DNA of 64,000 nt from a virus: the UHGV virus genome UHGV-0036582. One strand, 5' to 3'. A program made the translations under genes and the position numbers. The stretch's first letter is position 1. Each line of letters begins with the position of its first letter. Shown piece after piece: positions 679 to 56,132 of this stretch. The notes under the pieces are model-generated. The model was not told the DNA's origin. It saw nothing but the letters and a program-made list of their open reading frames with translations, and ran no database searches.

Positions 679-775
679 ATAGCCACCAGCTGCCGCAGGG
701 AAATTTTCAGAAACGGCGAGGAACGTATTCATGAGCCGACGGGGAACGGCCAGGATTTTTTCGGGAAACGGCTGC
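660..775. repeat. four direct copies of GAAACGGC-like 8-mer (iteron-like)
   Basis: AGAAACGGC at 661, AGAAACGGC at 709, GGAACGGC at 743, GAAACGGC at 765 inside a 600-bp non-coding convergent region; read directly from sequence. Confidence 0.5.
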
Positions 776-899
776 ATTCGCCTTTATGTAGAAAAAACAT
801 CGGGAAGCTGGTGGAATCCAACCAGCGGTTGTCGGACAGGTGAGCGGGGAAAATTATGATGACTTTCGTCACCTGAGACATCCAGATTTCTTTCGTAGC

Positions 900-1025
900 A
901 TAATCACATACGTGATTAAGTGGTGTGATTATGTGAAAAATCACGCGCACATAATACGCGAGCGGATACAGAACAAAACAAAATGCCGATCCGCACCGAC
1001 AAATAAACGCGGATCACATAGCAAG
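900..1025. repeat. cluster of GTGATTA/TAATCAC and TCACATA short inverted/direct repeats
   Basis: TAATCAC-ATAC-GTGATTA palindrome at 901-918, GTGATTATGTGAAAAATCAC at 923-942, TCACATA again near 1013; non-coding. Confidence 0.4.
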
Positions 1026-1180
1026 ACTAAAAGCCAATGATTAACCATACTCTATAGCGCAATATAACGCGTTTTAAGCGCGTTAATGTGTTAAGTAATG
1101 GGTATGTACTGGCAAGGATATAAAAGCGCGTCTATGGCGTTATTTTGGTGCTTATTTTTATGTTGTTGGAGTGAGTTAAA

Positions 1181-11239: not shown

Positions 11240-12814
11240 ATGGAATTGAACGACAAACAAATTAAGGATCTGGTGGCGCGACGCCACCCGGAATACGAAA
11301 AGAAAAAAGAACATTGGGACTTCCTCGCCAGCACTTACGCTGGCGGGCGTGGTTGGTTTACAGACAATATCTTTCGTTACTTTAAAGAGGGAGATCAGGA
11401 GTTTAAGGAGCGAGTTGAGCGTGCTTATCGCTTCAACCACACTCGTGAGGTGGTAAACCTCATCAACAAATATCTCTTTAAAGAAGACATTCATAGAAAT
11501 ATCGAAGAGGCACCAGAGCAGATCCGCAATTTCTGGAAACGTGCGACTCGCCAGAATGCCTCTATTGACTCATTTATGGCCGCTATTGATTTGCAGTCGT
11601 CTATTTACGGTCGCATATGGGTTGTTGTCGATAGCACGATGAGTGGTGATGTTGAGTCAGTAGCTGACGAGAAAAAGAAAGATGCTCGCGCCTACGCCTA
11701 CTGGATTTCACCTCAGCAAATGCTGGATGTGACATGGGACGACGACGGGAATATGTTGTGGGCGTTAATTGTGGAAGTCGCTCGTGATGACGCAGATCCT
11801 TTTACTTCTACAGGTCAGGAATACCAACGTTATCGTCTGTGGACACAAAACGAGTGGTATCTGTTCCGTGAGGAAGTGAAGAAGGGCGCTGGTGGAGCAG
11901 GTCGCCGTCAGGCAAAAGTTATTTTAGAGGATAGCGGTGAGCATAATCTCGGCGTAGTTCCTGTGTTTCCTGTTGATTGTATTGGAGAAAGTGAATCACC
12001 GTATTTCAGCCCATCGTTGATCGATGATATCGCTTATCTTGATCGTGCGGTTGCAAACTATCTGTCAAACCTTGATGCCATTATTCAGGATCAGACATTT
12101 AGCCAGTTGGCTATACCGGTACAGTCGCTTTTACCTGGTGATGAAAACCACACTAAAGTGCTTGAAATGGGCACAAAGCGAGTCTTCACCTACGATTCTG
12201 AAGGTGGAAACCAGCCGTTTTATCTGTCACCAGACCCGAAACAAGCTCAGATGATCATCACTACGATTAAGACGGTGATTAACGAAATCTACCATTCAGT
12301 TGGTGTAGCTGGTGAGCGAACGAAGCAGGACAACGCACAGGGAATCGATAATTCATCTGGTGCCGCAAAAATGTATGACTTCCAGCGTGTAAATAGCTTG
12401 CTTGTCACAAAAGCAGAGCGTCTGGAAAGGGCTGAACGCCAAATCATGCTACTGGTTGCGAAATGGATGGGGGTAGATCTGGACGAAGACCACTCTTTAA
12501 TTGCGTATCCAGAAAGTTTCGATATTCGTGGCCTTACTGATGAATTTTCTGTTGCCGAGAAACTGTCATTACTTCAGGCACCGGACTCTGTACGTCGTCA
12601 CCAGATGGAAATGCTTATTGAGAAGATTTTCCCGAACATTACTGAGGCGATGAAAAAGGAATTTGATAAAGATCTCTTGAATTTTCCTCCAAAAAATGAT
12701 CTAAATACCCTTGAAAATAAGTCAGTACTTACTTATGATCGTGGTGCAGCCCAAGAAAGCGGGCAAGATCAACCCCGAGGGAATGGGGACTCATCTACTC
12801 AAGAGAACGAGTGA
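11240..12814 (+). CDS. portal protein
   Basis: 524-aa ORF immediately after terL; size and position typical of portal. Confidence 0.7.
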   Translation: MELNDKQIKDLVARRHPEYEKKKEHWDFLASTYAGGRGWFTDNIFRYFKEGDQEFKERVERAYRFNHTREVVNLINKYLFKEDIHRNIEEAPEQIRNFWKRATRQNASIDSFMAAIDLQSSIYGRIWVVVDSTMSGDVESVADEKKKDARAYAYWISPQQMLDVTWDDDGNMLWALIVEVARDDADPFTSTGQEYQRYRLWTQNEWYLFREEVKKGAGGAGRRQAKVILEDSGEHNLGVVPVFPVDCIGESESPYFSPSLIDDIAYLDRAVANYLSNLDAIIQDQTFSQLAIPVQSLLPGDENHTKVLEMGTKRVFTYDSEGGNQPFYLSPDPKQAQMIITTIKTVINEIYHSVGVAGERTKQDNAQGIDNSSGAAKMYDFQRVNSLLVTKAERLERAERQIMLLVAKWMGVDLDEDHSLIAYPESFDIRGLTDEFSVAEKLSLLQAPDSVRRHQMEMLIEKIFPNITEAMKKEFDKDLLNFPPKNDLNTLENKSVLTYDRGAAQESGQDQPRGNGDSSTQENE

Positions 12815-12835
12815 TAAGTAACAAAAGGAATTTTT

Positions 12836-13723
12836 ATGAATCTGTGGCAAATGCTTTTGGCCCGTCGTGGTCTGATGGATGTCGCTGAAGCGCATGAGCG
12901 TGGAGGCGCTGGCGGTGTAGCTGCTGATAATGAGCAGAGTACACAAGATCCTGACAAACAGGGTGAACAAAAAGAGCAGCCGAAGGGCGATGACGAATAC
13001 GCTGGCATGACTCAGGAAGAGTTACTGGCCGAACTTCGTAAAACCAAGAAAGCTGGTGCTGAACTGCTGAAGGAGAACATGAAGCGCAAAGAGAAAGAGC
13101 GCACATTGGCCGATCAGCTTGCTCAGTACGGTGATATCGATCCGGCTCGTGCTCGCCAGCTTTTAGAAGCTGAACAGGCCGCAGAAAACGCACGTCGTGA
13201 GGCGGAGCAAGCTGAACTGGAGCGTCGTGGTGAGTTCGATGCTGTTAAAAAACAGATGATCGAAGCACACCAGGCAGAGCTGGCACAGCGTGACGAACGT
13301 TATGCAGCACTGGAAAGTGAAAACGCATCACTGAAATCTCAATTAGTCGAGATGACCGTGGGCGCGTCCTTCAGTAACTCTCTCTTCCTACGTGACAAAG
13401 TTCTGATGACCCCGGCAAAAGCCCGCGTGATCTACGGTTCTCATTTTGAAGTGGGTGAAGACGGTAGCGTAGTGGGTTATGACAAACCGGCAGGTCATAA
13501 AGAACGAGCTGTTCTGGTTGACGGTGAAGGTAAGCCGTTGCCGTTTGAATCCGCGATTGAACGCATTGTGCGGGCAGATCCGGAAGCTGACGCATTGATG
13601 CGTAGCGAAGCCAAGCAGGGTGTAGGCTCACATTCCAAATCGACCTACACAATATCCCAACCGAAGAACAAGTCGACTATGGATAAGTTGGCCTCCGGTC
13701 TGGGGAAAATTGGACTTAAGTAA
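12836..13723 (+). CDS. scaffolding protein
   Basis: Charged alpha-helical/coiled-coil rich, between portal and capsid genes. Confidence 0.5.
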   Translation: MNLWQMLLARRGLMDVAEAHERGGAGGVAADNEQSTQDPDKQGEQKEQPKGDDEYAGMTQEELLAELRKTKKAGAELLKENMKRKEKERTLADQLAQYGDIDPARARQLLEAEQAAENARREAEQAELERRGEFDAVKKQMIEAHQAELAQRDERYAALESENASLKSQLVEMTVGASFSNSLFLRDKVLMTPAKARVIYGSHFEVGEDGSVVGYDKPAGHKERAVLVDGEGKPLPFESAIERIVRADPEADALMRSEAKQGVGSHSKSTYTISQPKNKSTMDKLASGLGKIGLK

Positions 13724-13748
13724 CATCTAAATCAAAGGGAATTGATAG

Positions 13749-14624
13749 ATGCCATTACTGCGTGAAGAAGCTGAAAAGCTGTCTAACAACGAACTTGAAC
13801 AGGGTGTGATCGAAACTATCATCGATCGCGATGACCTGTTTGCCATCCTGCCTTTTATGAAAATTAATTCAAAGGCATATCTGTACAACCGTGAAAAAAC
13901 GCTGAGTGAAGCTACCTTCATCGACGTTAACGACACCATCCCTGAAGGTGCAGCAACCTTCGAAGAATGCGTTGCGAAACTGCGTATTCTGGCTGGTGAC
14001 GTAGACGTTGATAAATTCCTGGCGACCACTATGGCCGACACCAACAACCAGTTGGCTATTCAGGTTCGTCAGAAAGTTAAAGGTCTGGCTCGTGCGTTCC
14101 GTCGCAACCTGATTTTGGGTGACTCCAGCTCCAACAACAAGGCGTTTGACGGCATTCCACGCCTGATGCACGCAGATCAGAAGATCGATATCGCCGGTGC
14201 ATCTATGACTTTCTCTATGTTCGACGAACTGGTCGATGCGGTGAAAGATCTTGGTGCTGACTGCATCATGATGCGTTCAGAGCACCTGCGTGCTTACCGT
14301 GCGCTGCTGCGTACAGTAAACGTAGGTCCGTCTGAAATCATGATGGAGAACTTCGGTCGTCCGATGCTGTGTCATAACGGCGTTCCGTTCATCATCAACG
14401 ACTTCATCCCGACCGATTCTGGCAAAGCAAGCATCTACTGCCTGCATCTGTCAGAAGAGAACGGCGTTACTGGTCTGTATGGCGGCGACAACGCAGGTAT
14501 CGTTGTTGAAAACATTGGTACTGTACAGAACAAAGACGCAGTACGTACCCGTGTGAAGTGGTACTGCTCTCTGGCGAATAAGCACGATAAGGCTATCGCT
14601 GCACTGACCAATGTAAAAATTTAA
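13749..14624 (+). CDS. major capsid protein
   Basis: 291-aa ORF after scaffold, followed by strong terminator 14659-14684. Confidence 0.65.
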   Translation: MPLLREEAEKLSNNELEQGVIETIIDRDDLFAILPFMKINSKAYLYNREKTLSEATFIDVNDTIPEGAATFEECVAKLRILAGDVDVDKFLATTMADTNNQLAIQVRQKVKGLARAFRRNLILGDSSSNNKAFDGIPRLMHADQKIDIAGASMTFSMFDELVDAVKDLGADCIMMRSEHLRAYRALLRTVNVGPSEIMMENFGRPMLCHNGVPFIINDFIPTDSGKASIYCLHLSEENGVTGLYGGDNAGIVVENIGTVQNKDAVRTRVKWYCSLANKHDKAIAALTNVKI

Positions 14625-18203: not shown

Positions 18204-18277
18204 GTTAATCGGTAAGTATATACTTATTGTTAGCGCAATGAATGCGTAGAATTAACGGAAAAAGGAGTTTTCCATCA

Positions 18278-19024
18278 ATGTCTAATACCCATGTAAAAAA
18301 CATCAAACTTGGTGCCTGTAAGGTGTCGTTTGGTGGTGTGGATTTGGGTTACACCAAAGGTGGTGTTCAGGTTGAAGTAGCCACTGAAACGCTGAAAGTC
18401 ACCGTCGATCAGTTGGGGCAGACCGTAATTTCCGAATTAGTTCAGGGGCGCAACATTACCATCACCGCGCCTCTGGCTGAGTCTGTACTCCAAAACATGG
18501 TTGACCTGATGCCTGGTTCTACTCTGAGCGAAGATGACAACTCTGTCACGATCACATCTGCACAGGGCGTTAATCTGATTGATGTGGCGAAGGAGCTGGT
18601 TCTGACTCCGCAGGACACCACCGACTATGTGTTGACCATCCCGAAAGCGGCAACCGCGGGCAACTTCACTATGACCTACCAGTCTGATGATGTTCGTGTG
18701 TTCTCTGTTCAGTTCAGCGCATACCCGGATGATGAAGGCGTTCTGGGCAAAATGAGCGGTCCTAAACCGGTAAAAACTGTGTCGATCTCACCGGAATCTC
18801 CAACCGTAAAAGCTGGAGAAACTGTGCAACTGACAGCCGAAATCACTCCAGCTGATGCCGCAGACAAAACCGGTGTTTGGGAATCCGAAGACCAGGAAAA
18901 GGCCACGGTAGATCAAACGGGTCTGGTACGTGGTGTGGCGCAGGGTTCTACAAATATCTCCTTCACCAGCAATAGCGGTGGTAAGAAGGCAACTAAGTCA
19001 GTAACGATTAACTCCGCAGGTTAA
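18278..19024 (+). CDS. major tail protein with C-terminal Ig-like (Big_2) domain
   Basis: ATG 18278 after AAAGGAG RBS; C-terminal VKTVSISPESPTVKAGETVQLTAEITPADA...ATKSVTINS Big_2 pattern; followed by terminator. Confidence 0.7.
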   Translation: MSNTHVKNIKLGACKVSFGGVDLGYTKGGVQVEVATETLKVTVDQLGQTVISELVQGRNITITAPLAESVLQNMVDLMPGSTLSEDDNSVTITSAQGVNLIDVAKELVLTPQDTTDYVLTIPKAATAGNFTMTYQSDDVRVFSVQFSAYPDDEGVLGKMSGPKPVKTVSISPESPTVKAGETVQLTAEITPADAADKTGVWESEDQEKATVDQTGLVRGVAQGSTNISFTSNSGGKKATKSVTINSAG

Positions 19025-19037
19025 TCAGTAATTAAGC

Positions 19038-19064
19038 AGAGGCTCAGGATGAGCCTCTCTTTTA
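19038..19064 (+). terminator. intrinsic terminator after major tail gene
   Basis: AGAGGCTC-AGGAT-GAGCCTCT followed by CTTTTAAAAG. Confidence 0.7.
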
Positions 19065-19079
19065 AAAGGATTTTAACCA

Positions 19080-19397
19080 ATGACCAAATTACTCGATCTC
19101 GATTCCATTCTGCCTCCGAAGAAAAGCATCAAATTTGGCGGTCAGGAATATCCCATCGTTGAAATGACGGTAGGTCTGTTCGTTTCCATCAAGCAGATGG
19201 AAGGCAAAGATCTCATGAACATGTCTCCTGTTGAGCAAGTGACAGCTTATGCAGATCTGGTTCGTAAGGTTATCCCTTCAGTACCTGACGAAGTTCTTGA
19301 AAAACTGACTGTTCAGCAACTCCAGCAGATCTTCACCTTCGCTATGGAAGTGATTGATGAAGAAAACGAAAAAGCGGCTGGCGAAGGGGCAAAGTAA
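19080..19397 (+). CDS. tail assembly chaperone (G-like)
   Basis: 105-aa acidic ORF between major tail and tape measure genes. Confidence 0.6.
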   Translation: MTKLLDLDSILPPKKSIKFGGQEYPIVEMTVGLFVSIKQMEGKDLMNMSPVEQVTAYADLVRKVIPSVPDEVLEKLTVQQLQQIFTFAMEVIDEENEKAAGEGAK

Positions 19398-19477
19398 TTT
19401 CCCGCGATGAATCCGGGACAAGGACCGTCTCAATAGATCTCGGATTCTATTTCAGTCGTGTAGTTGCTCACTACGCC

Positions 19478-19747
19478 GTGTCGCCATTAGAGCTACTGAA
19501 CGTTCCTCTCACGATGTTCTGGATGCTCAGTCGCAATATAGACCGTCTGCGTGCGGAAGAGGATGTCCGCAACTTACAAGTCGCTCGTGCGTCCCAGGCG
19601 GATGGCGAGGCTGTGAAGGCGTTCATGGAGGGTTTGCAACTCAGGATTGGAAGACCAGTCGTAACAGATAAAGTCTACGATCCAAGCCAGGATAAGGCAG
19701 ACCCTGACGCCAAAGAGCAACTGATGCAAATATTTGGCAGAGGATGA
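19478..19747 (+). CDS. tail assembly chaperone frameshift extension (GT-like)
   Basis: -1 frame relative to G is open from 19361, overlapping the last 12 codons of G; ends at start of tape measure gene. Confidence 0.45.
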   Translation: MSPLELLNVPLTMFWMLSRNIDRLRAEEDVRNLQVARASQADGEAVKAFMEGLQLRIGRPVVTDKVYDPSQDKADPDAKEQLMQIFGRG

Positions 19748-22700
19748 CAAGGGAATGTCACAAAACGTAGAGTTTATCCTGTCGCTGGAAGACAAACAGT
19801 TTACAGCGTCAATCGATCGTGCGGGGAAACTGCTTACTCGATTTGGTGAGCAGGTAACAAAGCCTGCTCAAAAAATCCAAACCTTTGAACGCTCTTTGGG
19901 TTCGGTCGCCCGTATCATTGGCGTTCTGGAAAGCAAGCTCGATTCTACGGCAGATAAACTACAGGATGTAGCTGCCGGTTTTGAGCTTGCTTCAGATGCT
20001 ACGCGTAAAATGCGTGGTAACATCACCAGCCTCAATTCTGGTCTTAAAGCCCTGATTGAGCGCGTCGATACGACAACTTCTTCAGTAGATAAACTCACCG
20101 CGTCATTACGTAAAGTGCAATCAGAGCTAAATGATTTCTCTGATTGGGCGACCTATGCAAGCAAAAGCGCAAGCCGCTTTGGTACGGAGGTCAAAGAGGC
20201 CTCTGCGTCCGTGAGTGGCATGAATACGCGCCTTAATACCACGACGAAGCGACTCAGTAATTGGGGTGTCACAACGAGTCAGGCTGCCGATGGACTGAAA
20301 AAGGTTCGTGAGCAGATGGACGAAGTTATCGGACGTCAACAACTGATTAGCAAGCCGGTACGCGTTCGTACATCTGGCAGTGGCGATGGTGGCAGCGGGC
20401 GGCGTAGCGGCTCTGGCCATAGCGGTAAAAGTAACGAAGGAGGTATGTTCTCTGGCCTTCGTGGCAATATTTTCCTGCTTGGCGAGATTGGAGATGCAGC
20501 CAGAACGGTTACTGACATCATGTTTGGATGGCAGAAGCCTATTGTTGAAGCTGCGGCCGAAATGGAACGTATGCGGGTGATGCTTCGTGGGTTGAATAAG
20601 GAGAAGTCTAACCCTGGCCAGGCAGCCGCCGATGACATGAAGTACATCGTAGACATGGCTCAAAATGCGCCGTTCGCGATGCAGGCGTTAACAGATTCCT
20701 TCGTGAAGTTTCGTTCTGCTGGCTTAGATCCAACCGATGGCTCTCTGAAGGCGCTGGTGGACTCCGTTGCTCGTTTTGGTGGTGATAGTGAGCTGTTGAA
20801 ACGTGCGGCTGTGGCCGTTCAGCAGATGTCCGGTAAGGGCGTCGTGTCAATGGAAGAGCTACGTCAGCAATTAGGTGAAGCCGTTCCTAACGCGATGCAG
20901 GCAATGGCAGACGCCGCAGGCATCACTATGGGGGAACTGACTAAAGCCGTTGCCAGCGGTACGGTTGAGGCAAAACAGGCGTTGTCTCTGATGTTTGTTG
21001 GTCTGCGTGCGGAGAATGAGAACGCAGCGAAAGACATGATGCAAACCTACACAGGTGCGCTGGCGCAACTTCAGACGTCATTCACGTTATTTGCTGATCG
21101 GGTTGGTCAGGCCGGATATCTGGATTCTCTATCGAAGGGGATGAAAGAACTGGCTTCAATCATGAATAGCGCCGAAGGGATTTCGTTTGCTAATTCTTTA
21201 GGTTCGGGGTTAACGACGGCAATCGATGGGTTGCGTCAGCTTGCTCAATGGTTAGCAAAGAACCAAGAACTGGTAATTAATCTCGGTAAGGTCGTGGCCG
21301 CGATGGTTGCGTTCAAACTGATGCGTGCAGGGATTATGGGCGTAGTTGGTGCTGGCGGCCAGATGGTTAGCACCTTCGCCACGATGGCAACCGCCATACA
21401 GACTCCATTTAACCTCGGCGCTACAGCAGTAACTCGATTCAATCGTGCGGCACGTATGGGGTTGGCTCCGATCCCCTCTCTTATTTTCGCCATCCGTGGG
21501 GCGATTACGGGGCTTAAAGGCGCTTTTGCAGGATTAACGGCGTTCATTGCGGCAAACCCTATAGGGGCAGCATTTACAGTCGCCACTGTAGCTGTTGCTG
21601 GCCTAATCACGTACATGACCATGCTCCGCAGCGAAACTTCAAAGGTCGTTGACGAGATTAGGAAAATACCAGAGGCGATGACGGCGGCCAAACGTGCACA
21701 AATGGCCGACCGCGCAGAAAAGCTCGAAAAGCAGATTCTTGCTGATCAACGAGCATTAAAAACTGGTGAGGGTGTTAATTACGTATCTAACTCTGCCGGT
21801 GTTATTACTCACAAAGAGTCGAAGGCTGACATCGAAGCACGCCTGAAAAAAAATCAGGAGGAGTATCAAAAGATAACCGGCACGATAGCTCTTGGTGACG
21901 GCGCTGTAGCAAAGCGTTTGGCTAAAGAGGCTGCCGAATCTCAGATTGAGAAAATTCGAGCGGAAAACCAGATTTTCGCGGCAACATTCGTGAAAGCCCG
22001 GCAAGAGGCTCTGGATAAGATCCAGAAAATCAATGATGACGGTTCACTTTCAGATGACGAAAAGAACAAGCTATTGGCACCGTTACGTGAAACGGTAAAC
22101 AAAAGCTATCTGGAGCCTGCGCAAAAACTGGTTGATTCACTTTCTTCTCGTAAGAATGCGACCGAGAAGCAAATTGCGACTCTTAATGATCAGCTTGAAA
22201 AAGCCAAAAAGGATGGAAATACCGAGCAGATCCAGAAACTGCAAGGCAGTATTCGTGGTTATCAGGAGCATTTGGAAGCCGTTGCTCAGGAGCTGACTCA
22301 GGCAGAGTTCGAGAGAGATAACGCGGCCAAAACTGGTAAGGGCGTAATGTCAAACCAGGGGACTGTTCTTGGGTTAGGTACAACTGATAAAGCTGCTCAG
22401 AAGGCGCTGGCGCAATATATGCGAAACCAGATGGATTCTGCGACTTATCAACGTACTTTGCCTGACGGCACTCCGATGATGGACTTCGAAGGTAAGCCGA
22501 TTATTGGGCCTAAACAACTCAAGACGCAGCTTAATTTGCAGAAAGCATCCAGTGCCAGCTCTCTGGAGAAAATGAGCGATGAAGAGCGTGCCGCAGCCAT
22601 TGCTGCACTGACTAAAGCTCGTGAACAGGATGCCGCAGCCGCCGAGAAAGCAGCCCAACGATCAGCTAATGCCTCGCAGCGAGCGGCCAAGAAAGAACAG

Positions 22701-24323
22701 GCAGCGCAACAGAAACTGGCGGCCGGATACCAGAAGGCTCTGGATAAAGCCGATCAGCTTATGGGGCAAATGGGTGAAAGCTCTAAGGCTACGGTATCGT
22801 TTGATCAGTCTCTACGCGATACAACGAAATCGCTGACGGATTTGGCTAATGCGGTTCCTAACGAGTTCATCACTCAAGAGATGATCGACAAGGCGAAAAA
22901 ACGTCTTGAAGACCTCAAAAATGCGACACCTGAATATCGCGAGATGTTTAATCGCCGCAATGTTGAGCAGATGATCTCCACTTGGGCACCGGAGGCGGAT
23001 TCCATTATTAGTGCTGGCTATACGCCGTCTCGTGAAGAGAAAGTTGCTGATTTCGAAGACACCTACAACCGCAATCTCAAAGCGTTGATAGAACTTCGTG
23101 ATAAGGCGTCTGATCCTAAAGTCGTGGCGCTTTATACAAAGAAAATCAATCAACTTATTGCTGCTGGCAATACCGCGCTTATTAAAGAGACGGGGACTGC
23201 GACGCAGAAGTTGGCACTGGAATACGAAAGCCTGGCAGAGCAGATCGAAAGCACCTGGACTGATTTGTTTAGTGGCTTAACTGATGTCCTGACTGATTTC
23301 GTTATTAACGGGAAGATGAGCTTCTCCAGCCTATCTCAGTCCATTTTGAAAGATATCACCAATATGGTCGTGAAGTCGCAGATCACGCTGCCTCTAATGA
23401 ACATGTTGGGGATGGGAACCACCGCTGCTGGTAGTTCACAGAGTGGTAATTTGCTGACCGGGGTTGCTTCCGCCGTTGCCAATCAAGGGGTACGAATGGG
23501 CAACACTGTTAACGGCGACAAGTCTGTAGGAGAAGCCACGAAGGAGACGTCCAGTTCGGTAACTGGATTGGGGCAAACAACACAGCAGACCACCAGCGCA
23601 ATTGGCACAGCAACAAATGCGATTGGTAGCTGGGTATCGGGGCTATTTGATAGCACCGAAGCCAAAGATGCTGAGACAAAAGCAGTGAAGGACTCCATCT
23701 TCTCGATGCAGAACCTCAGCTCTGTTACCGGCGCTCTGTCTGCCGCGTTTGCAATGCTTGGAGCTAATGCTTCCGGCTCTGGTAATAAGTGGTTGAATTT
23801 CGGCGCGACAGTTGCATCTGGTTTGGTTTCAGTATGGGCTGGTGGTGGATTCGATGGATTGATGTCCGGTTCTTCTGGCTCAACTTCCGGGTTCAACAAT
23901 CTGACCAGTTCTGCTGCCGATGGCACGAATGGTATTCCTGCAATTCCGAAGTTTGCAAATGGTGGCATATTCGGAAAAGACGGCGTGATCCCGCTCCGGG
24001 CATACCAGAAAGGCGGTATCGCCAACTCACCTCAATTGGCGTTGTTTGGGGAAGGCGATATGAATGAGGCGTATGTTCCATTGCCTGATGGTCGAACAAT
24101 CCCTGTAACGCTCAGTACCGATGGTATGAGTGGAGGAGGAAATGTTCTTTCTCCGGTATCAATTGAGATCAACGTCCATAGTGACGGTAGCACAACTGAA
24201 TCCGGCGATACAGAAAGCATATGGAACAATGCCGCTCAACGGATGAAAGCAATCGCGCTTGAGACTATCGCTCAAGAGAAACGCCCTGGCGGATCACTCA
24301 ACCCAAACACTCAACGTAACTAA
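19734..24323 (+). CDS. tail tape measure protein
   Basis: 1529 aa, alpha-helical, Gly/Ala-rich hydrophobic segments; position after G/GT. Confidence 0.9.
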   Translation: MAEDDKGMSQNVEFILSLEDKQFTASIDRAGKLLTRFGEQVTKPAQKIQTFERSLGSVARIIGVLESKLDSTADKLQDVAAGFELASDATRKMRGNITSLNSGLKALIERVDTTTSSVDKLTASLRKVQSELNDFSDWATYASKSASRFGTEVKEASASVSGMNTRLNTTTKRLSNWGVTTSQAADGLKKVREQMDEVIGRQQLISKPVRVRTSGSGDGGSGRRSGSGHSGKSNEGGMFSGLRGNIFLLGEIGDAARTVTDIMFGWQKPIVEAAAEMERMRVMLRGLNKEKSNPGQAAADDMKYIVDMAQNAPFAMQALTDSFVKFRSAGLDPTDGSLKALVDSVARFGGDSELLKRAAVAVQQMSGKGVVSMEELRQQLGEAVPNAMQAMADAAGITMGELTKAVASGTVEAKQALSLMFVGLRAENENAAKDMMQTYTGALAQLQTSFTLFADRVGQAGYLDSLSKGMKELASIMNSAEGISFANSLGSGLTTAIDGLRQLAQWLAKNQELVINLGKVVAAMVAFKLMRAGIMGVVGAGGQMVSTFATMATAIQTPFNLGATAVTRFNRAARMGLAPIPSLIFAIRGAITGLKGAFAGLTAFIAANPIGAAFTVATVAVAGLITYMTMLRSETSKVVDEIRKIPEAMTAAKRAQMADRAEKLEKQILADQRALKTGEGVNYVSNSAGVITHKESKADIEARLKKNQEEYQKITGTIALGDGAVAKRLAKEAAESQIEKIRAENQIFAATFVKARQEALDKIQKINDDGSLSDDEKNKLLAPLRETVNKSYLEPAQKLVDSLSSRKNATEKQIATLNDQLEKAKKDGNTEQIQKLQGSIRGYQEHLEAVAQELTQAEFERDNAAKTGKGVMSNQGTVLGLGTTDKAAQKALAQYMRNQMDSATYQRTLPDGTPMMDFEGKPIIGPKQLKTQLNLQKASSASSLEKMSDEERAAAIAALTKAREQDAAAAEKAAQRSANASQRAAKKEQAAQQKLAAGYQKALDKADQLMGQMGESSKATVSFDQSLRDTTKSLTDLANAVPNEFITQEMIDKAKKRLEDLKNATPEYREMFNRRNVEQMISTWAPEADSIISAGYTPSREEKVADFEDTYNRNLKALIELRDKASDPKVVALYTKKINQLIAAGNTALIKETGTATQKLALEYESLAEQIESTWTDLFSGLTDVLTDFVINGKMSFSSLSQSILKDITNMVVKSQITLPLMNMLGMGTTAAGSSQSGNLLTGVASAVANQGVRMGNTVNGDKSVGEATKETSSSVTGLGQTTQQTTSAIGTATNAIGSWVSGLFDSTEAKDAETKAVKDSIFSMQNLSSVTGALSAAFAMLGANASGSGNKWLNFGATVASGLVSVWAGGGFDGLMSGSSGSTSGFNNLTSSAADGTNGIPAIPKFANGGIFGKDGVIPLRAYQKGGIANSPQLALFGEGDMNEAYVPLPDGRTIPVTLSTDGMSGGGNVLSPVSIEINVHSDGSTTESGDTESIWNNAAQRMKAIALETIAQEKRPGGSLNPNTQRN

Positions 24324-49342: not shown

Positions 49343-49417
49343 GATGGTGTAGCTCAGCGGTAGAGCAGTTGGCTGTTAACCAACTGGTCGGTGGTTCGAA
49401 TCCACCCACCATCGCCA
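49343..49417 (+). tRNA. tRNA-Asn (anticodon GTT)
   Basis: Cloverleaf folded by hand: acceptor GATGGTG/CACCATC, D-stem GCTC/GAGC, anticodon stem GTTGG/CCAAC with loop CTGTTAA, T-arm GGTGG-TTCGAAT-CCACC, 3' GCCA. Confidence 0.85.
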
Positions 49418-49422
49418 ATTTA

Positions 49423-49509
49423 GGGGAGTTAGTCCGTAGGGGCAGCGGGGTAGACTGTAAATCTACTGTCATTGCGACTCGGGTGGTTCGACTCCATCAC
49501 TCCCCACCA
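49423..49509 (+). tRNA. tRNA-Tyr (anticodon GTA), long variable arm
   Basis: Acceptor GGGGAGT/ACTCCCC, anticodon stem GTAGA/TCTAC with loop CTGTAAA, long variable arm, T-arm GGTGG-TTCGACT-CCATC, 3' ACCA; D-arm pairing irregular. Confidence 0.6.
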
Positions 49510-49513
49510 AATT

Positions 49514-49589
49514 GCCGGTTTAGCTCAGTTGGTAGAGCGCCTGCCTTGTAAGCAGGATGTCAGCGGTTCGAGTCCGCTAACCGGCACCA
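49514..49589 (+). tRNA. tRNA-Thr (anticodon TGT)
   Basis: Acceptor GCCGGTT/AACCGGC, D-stem GCTC/GAGC, anticodon stem CCTGC/GCAGG with loop CTTGTAA, T-arm AGCGG-TTCGAGT-CCGCT, 3' ACCA. Confidence 0.85.
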
Positions 49590-49813
49590 ATACAACGATA
49601 AGATCATTACGGTTAATCGTCGTTCATGTGCACAATGACTGGTCGAAAGGTAGTGATCTTACCGTTGTGGTGGATTCGCAGACTGATGCGATAGCTTTCT
49701 TGGATGTTAGGGAAATGCGGCCGCAAATCTTCCCTTTCGCGAGCGGTGATCGTCCGTAGTCCTAATTGGCTGCACCGTATGCCGGAGATTCAGTACCGGC
49801 CACCACAACGGCC

Positions 49814-49900
49814 GGAGAGTAGGGAGCATGGTGCTCAAGCGGTCTTGAAAACCGTCCCATTGCGCAAGCGATGATGGTTCGATTCCATTACTCTCCGCCA
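49814..49900 (+). tRNA. tRNA-Ser (anticodon TGA), long variable arm
   Basis: Acceptor GGAGAGT/ACTCTCC, D-stem GAGC/GCTC, anticodon loop CTTGAAA, long variable arm, T-loop TTCGATT, 3' GCCA. Confidence 0.7.
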
Positions 49901-54032: not shown

Positions 54033-56132
54033 ATGTCTAAAAAACGTTCCATCAAAGAGGTTCAGGACTTCCGTGACAGTGTAAAACGAGTAGTCGCTCT
54101 CCTTTCAGGTAAAAACATCCCTGTTGCAGAACGAGGGGACGACGCTTATGTACGCTATAACGATGATGGAGAGCCAATTCTCGTAAACATCCCATCAATC
54201 CCGGATAACGCAACACCAGCATTGATGAATGCTGTGCGCGGATTTCTCGATCATGAGGTTGCTCACATTTTGTTTACCGATATTCATGTGTCCAACAAAA
54301 TGAGAGAAAAAGGACGCGTTCCTTCCTGGTCGCTATGGAATGCCTTAGAAGACGTGTTTATCGAGCGAAAAATGGGGCAGGTCTTTAACGGAACAAGACG
54401 TAATCTGATGGCAACTCAGCGCCTTATAATCGAAAAAGTCTTTAAACCAAAGGCTTCAGAGGCTATTACTTATTGTGGCAAAGATCAGCGCGCGCTTTTT
54501 CTAAACTTCTTTCTCTGTCCGGTTGTAAGAGCCTGGGATGGCCAAGCACCGTTCGTAGATTTCATGGATGAATACTGGCCTGTCATTGAGAAACCAATTT
54601 CATTATTAAAAGAACATGGTATCGATGTGGCCGTGCGTAACATGTCTTGCACCGGGGATTGTTTAAAGGTGGCTGCGACCATCGCTAAGATCCTCAAAGA
54701 CACAGAAAGTGAAAGCAAAGGTAAGGAGTCAGCTCCGGGAAAAACTTCCGATCCTTCAGACGCTGATCACGCGGATTCCTCTGGAGAAGGCGATGAAGAT
54801 CACAAGACACCCGAATCGTTAGATAATCACATATCTATTAAAGAAAATTCAAAAGGTAAGCACAAATACGATAATAACAACAGTGATAATTCAGATAACT
54901 CTGAATCATCAGAAACAATATTCGATGATACAGAAAATGATAAAGAGGTATCAGATTCTGGTGCTTCTGATAACGCGGCGTCAGAAGCATTGACCACTGA
55001 CCACGAAAAAAGAAAATCGACAGAAGACGGCTCTTCAGACATTCCAACTCCGTCAAAAATGAGTCTGGAAGAGGCTTTAGAGGAGTTGGATAGCATGGAA
55101 GATGAAGTCGGAGGCATGACAGAAGATGCGCTATCCGAAACGATTAAAAGCGAGTTAACAGAAAGCTCGAAAAGCGAATACAGGCCATACAATCGCTCAT
55201 ACGACTTCATCGGCTCGATTGATCAGGCAGAAGCCCATATCAAACGGCTTATTAAAACATTCTCCGATATTGATTTAGGTGGATATCCAATCAGCCGTTA
55301 TCGCATCGTTCCTGAAGGCAACCAACTCTTCGACAAATATATTGAAAAGCACCTTTCGTCAGGTGTTTCGTCGACGCTGGCAAAAGACCTGGAACGTGCA
55401 ATAGCAAGCAGAAACAGAGTTCAGTTTATACCTGGCCAGCGTCGGGGGCGCATTCATGGTTCAAGTATCTACAGATTAACAATGAATGATGATCGCGTGT
55501 TTCGTAAAAAAGAAGAATCTAAAGCCGTTAACGCCTGTGTTCAACAAGTGATTGATTTATCAGGTTCAATGAGTGGTATAACGATACAATTGGCTCTTGC
55601 AAGTGCATATACCATCGCCGATGCCCTTGATCGAATAAATGTTCCCAACATTATCACCGGCTTCACTACATTTGGTAGTCATATGGCGGCAGGAGAACTT
55701 AAGGCTGTCAAGTATGAGTTCTCTCGCTTTGAATCTTTAATGCTACCTATCATCAAAAATTGGAATGAAAAGGTAAATTCTCGCGAAGTTCGCTCACGTA
55801 TGGGGTGCGTAGGCTACACATTCCCACTTCTTAATAACGTGGATGGTGAAAGCATAGCCAGCCTTGCATCGTTATTTTCCGGTCGCATGGAGGACAGGAA
55901 GATCATGCTTGTTCTGAGTGATGGCGCGCCGTGGGCTGTTGGGAGAGGTTTTGACGCTCATTTGCGTTCGGTTGCGAAGCAAATTGAAACGCAGACTGAT
56001 ATTGATTTGATGGCAATTGGCATCATGACTGACGCACCGGAGAGATTTTACTCAAATCATGCCCTGGTAACGAGCGTTGATAGTCTTGGTTCATCTGTAG
56101 TTACTGAACTATCTCGTATCATTTTAAAGTGA
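54033..56132 (+). CDS. CobT-like von Willebrand factor A (VWA) domain protein
   Basis: C-terminal MIDAS motif VIDLSGSMSG; long acidic Ser/Asp/Glu-rich insert at about 54700-55100. Confidence 0.7.
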   Translation: MSKKRSIKEVQDFRDSVKRVVALLSGKNIPVAERGDDAYVRYNDDGEPILVNIPSIPDNATPALMNAVRGFLDHEVAHILFTDIHVSNKMREKGRVPSWSLWNALEDVFIERKMGQVFNGTRRNLMATQRLIIEKVFKPKASEAITYCGKDQRALFLNFFLCPVVRAWDGQAPFVDFMDEYWPVIEKPISLLKEHGIDVAVRNMSCTGDCLKVAATIAKILKDTESESKGKESAPGKTSDPSDADHADSSGEGDEDHKTPESLDNHISIKENSKGKHKYDNNNSDNSDNSESSETIFDDTENDKEVSDSGASDNAASEALTTDHEKRKSTEDGSSDIPTPSKMSLEEALEELDSMEDEVGGMTEDALSETIKSELTESSKSEYRPYNRSYDFIGSIDQAEAHIKRLIKTFSDIDLGGYPISRYRIVPEGNQLFDKYIEKHLSSGVSSTLAKDLERAIASRNRVQFIPGQRRGRIHGSSIYRLTMNDDRVFRKKEESKAVNACVQQVIDLSGSMSGITIQLALASAYTIADALDRINVPNIITGFTTFGSHMAAGELKAVKYEFSRFESLMLPIIKNWNEKVNSREVRSRMGCVGYTFPLLNNVDGESIASLASLFSGRMEDRKIMLVLSDGAPWAVGRGFDAHLRSVAKQIETQTDIDLMAIGIMTDAPERFYSNHALVTSVDSLGSSVVTELSRIILK

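Follow-up and report, generated by a model that had tools for sequence, protein, structure and literature searches.

A pair of small open reading frames (ORFs) located between the tail-tube and tape-measure genes of the virus genome UHGV-0036582 raises the question of how the second of them, which lies in the -1 frame, comes to be translated. The window, that is, the whole stretch of 64,000 nucleotides (nt) that was analysed, is by sequence identity an SSU5-like phage-plasmid, and it encodes at this locus a putative G-like tail assembly chaperone, hereafter G, followed by a segment hereafter called T. The locus very likely harbors a real, unannotated -1 frameshift of the G/G-T type known from phage lambda. 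The general reading of a G/G-T-type frameshift, already given in a preliminary description of this DNA, is well supported; the slip itself, however, is placed with a probability of roughly 75% on the tetramer A_AAG at the last codon of G (19391-19394), and not at the upstream site that had been proposed. The elements in question are the following.

19080..19397, + strand: G-like tail assembly chaperone ORF, 105 amino acids (aa), with the stop codon TAA at 19395-19397
19361..19390, + strand: upstream part of the open -1 frame, open in this subclade only and untranslated in the favoured model
19367..19376, + strand: C-GAA-AAA-GCG, candidate site of the preliminary description, not a conserved slip site
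19388..19394, + strand: candidate slip element, the degenerate heptamer G_GCA_AAG, with the working tetramer A_AAG at 19391-19394 or the hexamer GCA_AAG
19395..19397, + strand: UAA stop of G, adjoining the slip codon on its 3' side and possibly stimulating the slip as a 'shifty stop'
19394..19747, + strand: predicted T segment after the slip, in the -1 frame, 117 aa (VISRDESGTRTVSIDLGFYFSR...IFGRG) plus the stop TGA

The open -1 frame

Two consecutive TGA codons at 19355-19360 close the -1 frame, which stays open thereafter from 19361 until the TGA at 19745-19747, as first described, and its overlap with the 3' end of G (GAA GAA AAC GAA AAA GCG GCT GGC GAA GGG GCA AAG TAA) amounts to 34 nt, or 11 full codons and one base of the twelfth, in line with the 12 codons reported at first. 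The frame is open in every complete locus examined, with an overlap of 10 nt in Salmonella phage SSU5, plasmid pMT1 and others, 25 nt in Photorhabdus, and 94 nt in Klebsiella pneumoniae (Kp) KSB1. The T segment matches phrog_1131 (E=4.9e-40), and the predicted G-T fusion would comprise 105 + 117 = 222 aa.

No ATG, GTG or TTG codon occurs in the -1 frame before the GTG at 19478. This GTG and the ATG at 19514 are not conserved as starts in relatives, in which GTA, GTC or ATT and ACC are found, respectively, and the sole conserved ATG, at 19523, lies 43 codons past the stop of G inside the conserved motif FWMLSRNIDRL; none of these three candidate starts (19478, 19514, 19523) is preceded by a Shine-Dalgarno (SD) sequence, while such sequences are present upstream of G (AAGGA) and of the tape-measure gene (AAGGGA). 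In an alignment of 16 diverse relatives, the variable columns of 19398-19477 are distributed as 11/26, 2/27 and 22/27 over the first, second and third positions of -1-frame codons (chi-square p = 1.8e-4), and the sole indels between the stop of G and 19478 are two independent 3-nt insertions. Moreover, the motif IDLGFYFSR, encoded in T within the same interval, is conserved out to Rhizobium and Pseudomonas phages. The 80-nt "intergenic" stretch thus changes in the manner of coding sequence read in the T frame, and the open frame is beyond chance. The locus therefore shows the layout of the lambda system, in which a small overlapping ORF pair sits between tube and tape-measure genes, with the second ORF in the alternative frame, devoid of a conserved start or ribosome-binding site and under coding selection up to the overlap.

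The probable slip site

The preliminary description had remarked on the absence of a canonical slippery heptamer, and a scan of the whole G ORF bears this out, as no in-frame X_XXY_YYZ heptamer is found in G. The same scan returned exactly one in-frame A_AAG, at 19391-19394. About 97 loci yielded 27 distinct versions of this sequence, and in all of them, as well as in six additional loci, the tetramer is unchanged; TAA or TAG follows AAG immediately in every SSU5-clade locus. The codons 5' of AAG vary, being GGG, GAA, GAG or GAC and then GCA or GUA. The codon directly 5' is thus NNA in every locus, and the base that precedes it is G, A or C, so that no X_XX re-pairing is possible. In addition, A19391 is four-fold degenerate in G and yet constant, while the four-fold sites 19376, 19379 and 19382 vary widely; the codon at 19386-19388 changes its amino acid, and its four-fold site is constant only where Gly is retained.

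The frame itself narrows the choice further. In the 10-nt overlap of SSU5, pMT1, AnCo3, Cronobacter, Raoultella and others, the sole possible shift codons are GAA/GGG-GCA/GUA-AAG, and A_AAG is the only slippery, invariant element within it. A slip on GGG at 19386-19388 is rejected, given that this codon is not conserved, and the +1 frame is excluded, since it closes after 7 codons. The locus thus presents the features of a tetramer site, namely an in-frame A_AAG in the overlap and a 5' NNA codon unable to re-pair. The case for this slip site rests on frame constraints, conservation and homology; the motif alone means little.

Homology is provided by phages outside the SSU5 clade. When the T part served as tblastn query, homologues 27-37% identical to it emerged from Rhizobium phages (V1VFA-S, B1VFA and RHEph10), Pseudomonas Nickievirus phages (nickie and ZY21) and Stenotrophomonas phages (among them BUCTxx99), whose G proteins show 20-32% identity in alignment. 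Near the 3' end of their G genes these phages carry canonical heptamers, G_GGA_AAG and G_GGA_AAC in Rhizobium, C_CCA_AAG in Nickievirus and A_AAA_AAA in Stenotrophomonas phages. When begun at the slipped Lys codon, the T frames of the homologues align from the first residue, and the distance from slip junction to the conserved ID(L/F)xF motif is 6-14 residues in homologues and 13 for the SSU5-type A_AAG; because of this alignment and this matching distance, the SSU5-clade site would appear to be a degenerate version of the canonical G-T slip site. These loci resemble the one studied here in their homologous G and T, in their gene order, in having T in the -1 frame and in lacking a frameshift annotation, and several of them also have a downstream hairpin. 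Unlike it, they have canonical heptamers located 1-9 codons before the stop of G.

A predicted downstream hairpin

The consensus fold predicted by RNAalifold places a hairpin shortly after the slip site, with the following parts.

19403..19460, + strand: predicted hairpin, starting 8 nt after AAG
19409-19416 / 19440-19447, + strand: core stem, GAAUCCGG / UCGGAUUC, extended to 10 base pairs (bp) here
19403-19408 / 19455-19460, + strand: tentative lower stem, 92.7% paired

The core stem is 100% paired in the 16 diverse sequences, with one compensatory change from U-A to G-C (in Photorhabdus) and four kinds of wobble-preserving single change. The corresponding folds reach z = -2.0 to -3.95 across SSU5, Kp IR12073, Kp KSB1, Photorhabdus and a contig resembling Cronobacter, with z = -2.7 to -3.95 in divergent members of the clade, and strong hairpins are found at the homologous place in RHEph10 (z = -3.7) and in the Stenotrophomonas phage (z = -2.6). 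When 19200-19700 was scanned against Rfam, no known frameshift element turned up and all matches were at chance level.

RNAalifold also pairs GGCAA of the slip site (19388-19392) with UUGCU (19464-19468), immediately after the hairpin; of the five pairs in this helix, four are kept in 16/16 sequences (one C to U change leaving U-G), and the fifth is broken in one. Such a closing helix may, for example, mask the slip site until the ribosome arrives.

An SD-like string, AAGGGG at 19384-19389, was rejected as an upstream stimulator, as it is specific to the subclade and is replaced by GAAGAA, GAAGAC or GAAGAG in relatives. It also lies merely 1-2 nt upstream of the slip site, and not at the spacing of about 10 nt that characterizes stimulators of the dnaX type.

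Proposed mechanism

In the proposed model, most ribosomes would stop at the UAA at 19395-19397 and release the 105-aa chaperone G, while a small fraction would shift to the -1 frame at the last sense codon of G. The tRNA-Lys on AAG (19392-19394) would un-pair and re-pair on the overlapping AAA (19391-19393), after which the next codon would be GUA (19394-19396) and the -1 frame would be read to 19747, giving a 222-aa G-T fusion with the junction ...GEGAK-VISRDESG.... On GCA, or on GUA in relatives, the P-site tRNA would be unable to re-pair, so that the signal would be an NNA_AAG tetra- or hexanucleotide of the IS3, IS1222 or Bacillus subtilis cdd type and not an X_XXY_YYZ heptamer. Two stimulators are envisaged: the hairpin at 19403-19460, which begins 8 nt downstream, and the adjacent stop codon, at which tRNA-Lys would have another opportunity to slip once it has reached the P site. 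Slipping in the A site and slipping in the P site yield the same product, and sequence alone cannot separate them. The sequences themselves show the arrangement of the frames, the coding signature of the -1 frame up to the stop, the elimination of all other sites by the relatives and the homology with families that have canonical heptamers; the occurrence of the slip, its efficiency (a few per cent, by analogy) and the contribution of each stimulator are inferred.

Escherichia coli has a single tRNA-Lys, of the anticodon UUU family. The window carries four tRNA genes clustered at 49343-49900 (Asn-GTT, Tyr-GTA, Thr-TGT and Ser-TGA), and since tRNA-Lys is not among them the slip would depend on the tRNA-Lys of the host. 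GCA and GUA are both decoded by cmo5U34 tRNAs. At NNA_AAG sites, 5' codons decoded by wobble-prone tRNAs favour the shift (PMC5009743), and A_AA.G is by far the best -1 tetramer in E. coli, yielding 5.6% with a downstream pseudoknot and being used naturally in IS1 and IS3 (PMC4066793).

Several points weigh against this account. Z_ZZN tetramers without a stimulator give 0.147% frameshifting in E. coli versus a background of 0.112% (PMC4066793), so the model depends on stimulators that are themselves deduced from the sequence. The hairpin, at -16.9 kcal/mol, has only z = -1.5 in the window, where 11/200 shuffles fold as well; the covariation control is borderline, as 28/500 column shuffles reach the observed value and a double compensatory change occurs just once; the two arms code for conserved amino acids as well; and in the Klebsiella subclade the lower stem, on which the ideal 8-nt spacing depends, is not intact. 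The SSU5 clade is rather shallow (at least 69% nt identity), so that the invariance of A_AAG is partly due to shared ancestry. Finally, A_AAG followed by a stop is not uncommon by chance, as it ends 4/88 of the window's mechanical ORFs with 100 aa or more. The three others with this ending are 54033-56132 (+ strand, TTA AAG TGA), 12646-13908 (- strand, GCA AAG TAA) and 689-1099 (- strand, AAA AAG TAA).

The stop codon as a possible essential stimulator

The alternative closest to the favoured model retains the same site and product and makes the stop codon the essential stimulator, with the hairpin being incidental, in the manner of a 'shifty stop' that mirrors prfB in the -1 direction. The zero-frame stop is indeed immediately 3' of the slip codon; it adjoins AAG in every SSU5-clade locus, which is precisely the clade in which the P-site tRNA cannot re-pair, and AAG followed by UAA or UAG also occurs at the tube-Ig junction of sister plasmids described below. 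Slow-to-decode A-site codons are known to promote slippage (PMC5009743), and with AAG in the P site the lower stem would begin 12 nt from the first base of AAG. In the homologues with canonical heptamers, however, the stop is 1-9 codons away, and an adjacent stop is therefore no general requirement; the core of the hairpin is maintained through compensatory and wobble changes. Both release factors recognise UAA efficiently, which also speaks against an essential role for the stop. On balance, this alternative is less likely than not.

An obligatory stop would have a further consequence, and is itself rather unlikely: after the loss of P-site re-pairing, from a G_GGA_AAG-like to an N_GYA_AAG site, the G:G-T ratio would be set by a race between release at UAA and the -1 slip of the P-site tRNA-Lys.

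Other alternative explanations

Independent translation of T could start at GTG 19478, ATG 19514 or ATG 19523, as in current annotations, or by re-initiation at a non-canonical codon beside the stop, AUU 19397. In favour of this reading, all public records have two separate hypothetical proteins, and the ATG at 19523 is conserved. Nevertheless, the three annotated starts disagree, those at 19478 and 19514 are not conserved, and none has an SD sequence; coding-type substitutions and in-frame indels extend through the 28 codons between the stop of G and 19478, where ID(L/F)GFYFSR is conserved as far as the Rhizobium and Pseudomonas phages, and distant homologues have canonical slippery heptamers. 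As for re-initiation, the codon following the stop varies (AUU, AUA or GUU), and there is therefore no conserved re-initiation codon. A separate start of T is thus improbable. One tryptic peptide would be encoded upstream of every canonical start of T.

19424-19459, + strand: tryptic peptide in the T frame, TVSIDLGFYFSR

The preliminary description regarded as possible a single-tRNA slip on the A-run of C-GAA-AAA-GCG (A_AAA at 19370-19373, or A-AAA-G), which would give the junction ...ENEK-SGWRRGKVISR.... The -1 frame is open back to 19361 here and in about half of the close relatives, and A_AA.A is a weakly active tetramer in E. coli, yet the weakest of six active ones (PMC4066793). The proposal does not hold across the family: SSU5, pMT1, AnCo3, Cronobacter JZ38, Kp IR12073, Raoultella and others have the codons GGT GAA, and with them a -1 TGA 10 nt before the stop of G, between the site and T; a shift at GAA-AAA in these genomes would therefore end 3 codons on. 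The Klebsiella KSB1/IR12073/Raoultella subclade has GAA GCC in place of GAA AAA. Furthermore, no structure is present 5-9 nt downstream (fold of 19340-19400, z = -0.06), and the site lies 21 codons before the IDLGF motif, versus 6-14 in all homologues. It is therefore very improbable as the slip site, and A_AAA at 19370-19373 could make at most a minor contribution, in this genome only, where the -1 frame opens that far upstream.

Transcriptional slippage on the A-run, giving a subpopulation of -1 mRNA, can practically be discarded. The longest run in the overlap is the A5 at 19369-19373, and a metagenome-derived protein (P0004) is fused at exactly this run; however, the Klebsiella subclade lacks the run, many relatives have a -1 TGA after it, and P0004 changes frame a second time and resembles an assembly error. 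An A5 run is far shorter than those giving productive slippage of RNA polymerase. P0004 itself, a 139-aa protein from a metagenome contig of the European Nucleotide Archive (ENA), has G and T fused at the A5 run (...ENEK-SGWRRGKVISRDESG...), followed by the other frame change, and is most likely a homopolymer assembly error and not a natural variant.

Comparison with known systems

The frameshift of lambda G/G-T (Levin, Hendrix & Casjens 1993; Xu, Hendrix & Duda 2004, as cited in PMC5009743) shares with the present locus two overlapping ORFs between the major tail and tape-measure genes, the second of them in the -1 frame without its own start, and a G with a fold that is predicted here to be chaperone-like; in lambda, as is expected here, the slip falls on an AAG (Lys) codon close to the end of G and a minor G-T fusion is made beside abundant G. 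G_GCA_AAG and the lambda heptamer G_GGA_AAG are one base apart. They differ in that both tRNAs re-pair in lambda, while here, with G_GCA_AAG (A/C_GUA_AAG in relatives), tRNA-Lys alone would do so, and in that the slip codon is here the last codon of G, directly before the stop. Xu et al. are said, in their 2004 work, not to have treated the heptamer as obligatory.

Closer precedents for the slip site are IS3, with A_AAG and a pseudoknot, IS1222, with G_CGA_AAG, and B. subtilis cdd, with A_CGA_AAG (PMC4066793; PMC5009743). In these systems, as proposed here, a single tRNA-Lys slips from AAG to AAA next to a 5' NNA codon unable to re-pair, useful efficiency needs a downstream structure, and the host has a single tRNA-Lys. 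The present locus is unlike them in having GCA or GUA in place of CGA, an adjacent zero-frame stop, and a phage tail gene in place of a transposase; its stimulator is apparently a bipartite hairpin and not a pseudoknot as in IS3. With the +1 'shifty stop' frameshift of prfB, which encodes release factor 2 (RF2) (Weiss et al. 1987, as cited in PMC5009743), it shares a stop directly after the slip codon and an SD-like AAGGGG just upstream (19384-19389), but the direction is -1 and the SD-like string is not conserved.

Gene G and genome context

G is 105 aa long in all complete loci but one (L106, 104 aa) and matches phrog_893 (E=1.3e-48). An AlphaFold2 (AF2) model of G, built from a shallow 15-sequence alignment, has a predicted local distance difference test score (pLDDT) of 72.9, and its best fold match in BFVD is a 'Tail assembly chaperone' (E=2.2e-4, template modelling (TM) score 0.62), with many more matches annotated as tail assembly chaperones in the top 50. 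Sequence searches were less informative: a Pfam scan assigned no family to G or T, including the Pfam tail assembly chaperone families, the G profile against PDB sequences gave nothing below E=0.5, tblastn with G as query reached the close clade only, genome contigs contributed little besides Photorhabdus and Kluyvera, and no sequence similarity to lambda G or T was detectable.

The region of the window shares 99.3% identity with Escherichia phage Cyrano and 85% with SSU5, and the 681-nt G-T stretch has matches in 785 PLSDB plasmids, including pMT1 of Yersinia pestis and plasmids of Salmonella, Klebsiella, Enterobacter and Cronobacter; on this basis the window is assigned to the SSU5-type phage-plasmids. 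The local order of tail tube, G, T (-1 frame) and tape measure is identical in all relatives. No frameshift is annotated at G/T in any public record examined (Cyrano, SSU5, Y. pestis pMT1 and the inspected PLSDB records); G and T appear there as two separate hypothetical proteins, with T starting at the equivalents of 19478, 19514 or 19523, or omitted. The neighbouring genes are as follows.

18242..19024, + strand: tail-tube (major tail) gene with a C-terminal Big_2 immunoglobulin-like (Ig-like) domain, upstream neighbour of G
19755..24323, + strand: tape measure protein gene, downstream neighbour

The tail-tube gene is supported by Pfam Big_2 (E=5.8e-26), by phrog_1280 and major-tail PHROGs, and by the annotation 'Tail protein' in Cyrano, where the gene starts at the equivalent of 18278. 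The tape-measure gene is identified by Pfam TMP_3 (E=4.3e-27) and Tape_meas_lam_C (E=9.3e-12) and by the annotations of relatives. A promoter and terminator scan found none between G and T. Between the stop of the tube gene and the start of G, at 19038-19063, there is an 8-bp GC-rich stem-loop (AGAGGCTC-AGGAT-GAGCCTCT) followed by CTTTT, which resembles a leaky terminator and could reduce expression of G, T and tape measure relative to the tube protein; a consensus terminator scan did not call it, because its T run is short.

The tube-Ig junction

In the Klebsiella/Raoultella subclade, the tube gene ends with ...GCC CCA AAG TAA (or TAG), and a Big_2 Ig-like ORF continues in the -1 frame (CCC AAA GTA AAA GTG ACG...).

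L103 886-900 (also L005, L006, L107 and L108): end of the tube gene with C_CCA_AAG; the equivalent in the window is 18758-18772, + strand

This arrangement suggests a further -1 frameshift on the canonical heptamer C_CCA_AAG, by which the Ig domain would be added to part of the tube protein. As C_CCA_AAG is followed by UAA or UAG at this junction, the 'AAG + stop' device recurs in the lineage. In the window the tube and Ig parts are fused in frame (GGT CCT AAA CCG GTA) and the heptamer is lost. SSU5 (L002), pMT1 (L007) and many others have an in-frame C_CCA_AAG at the tube-Ig junction (GGC CCA AAG CCG GTT AAA), where a -1 slip would read CCC AAA GCC GGT TAA and produce a tube protein without Ig, a 'short form' like that of dnaX.

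Significance

The function of the G-T fusion and the type of its slip site are both already known, and the understanding of frameshifting or tail assembly is unchanged by the finding; it is the fusion itself that is unannotated. The practical value thus lies in annotation, as the G-T fusion gene is missing from all public records examined of a large and medically relevant family of phage-plasmids. Additionally, since a canonical heptamer in certain phage groups corresponds to a bare A_AAG + stop elsewhere, the homologous G-T loci form a natural comparison series in which the effects of P-site re-pairing, stop adjacency and hairpins could be measured within one protein family. If the race at the stop codon were true, this site would be a -1 counterpart of prfB that ties the tail-chaperone ratio to release-factor availability and growth state, and the same 'AAG + stop' module would also have added an Ig domain to the tube protein in sister plasmids.

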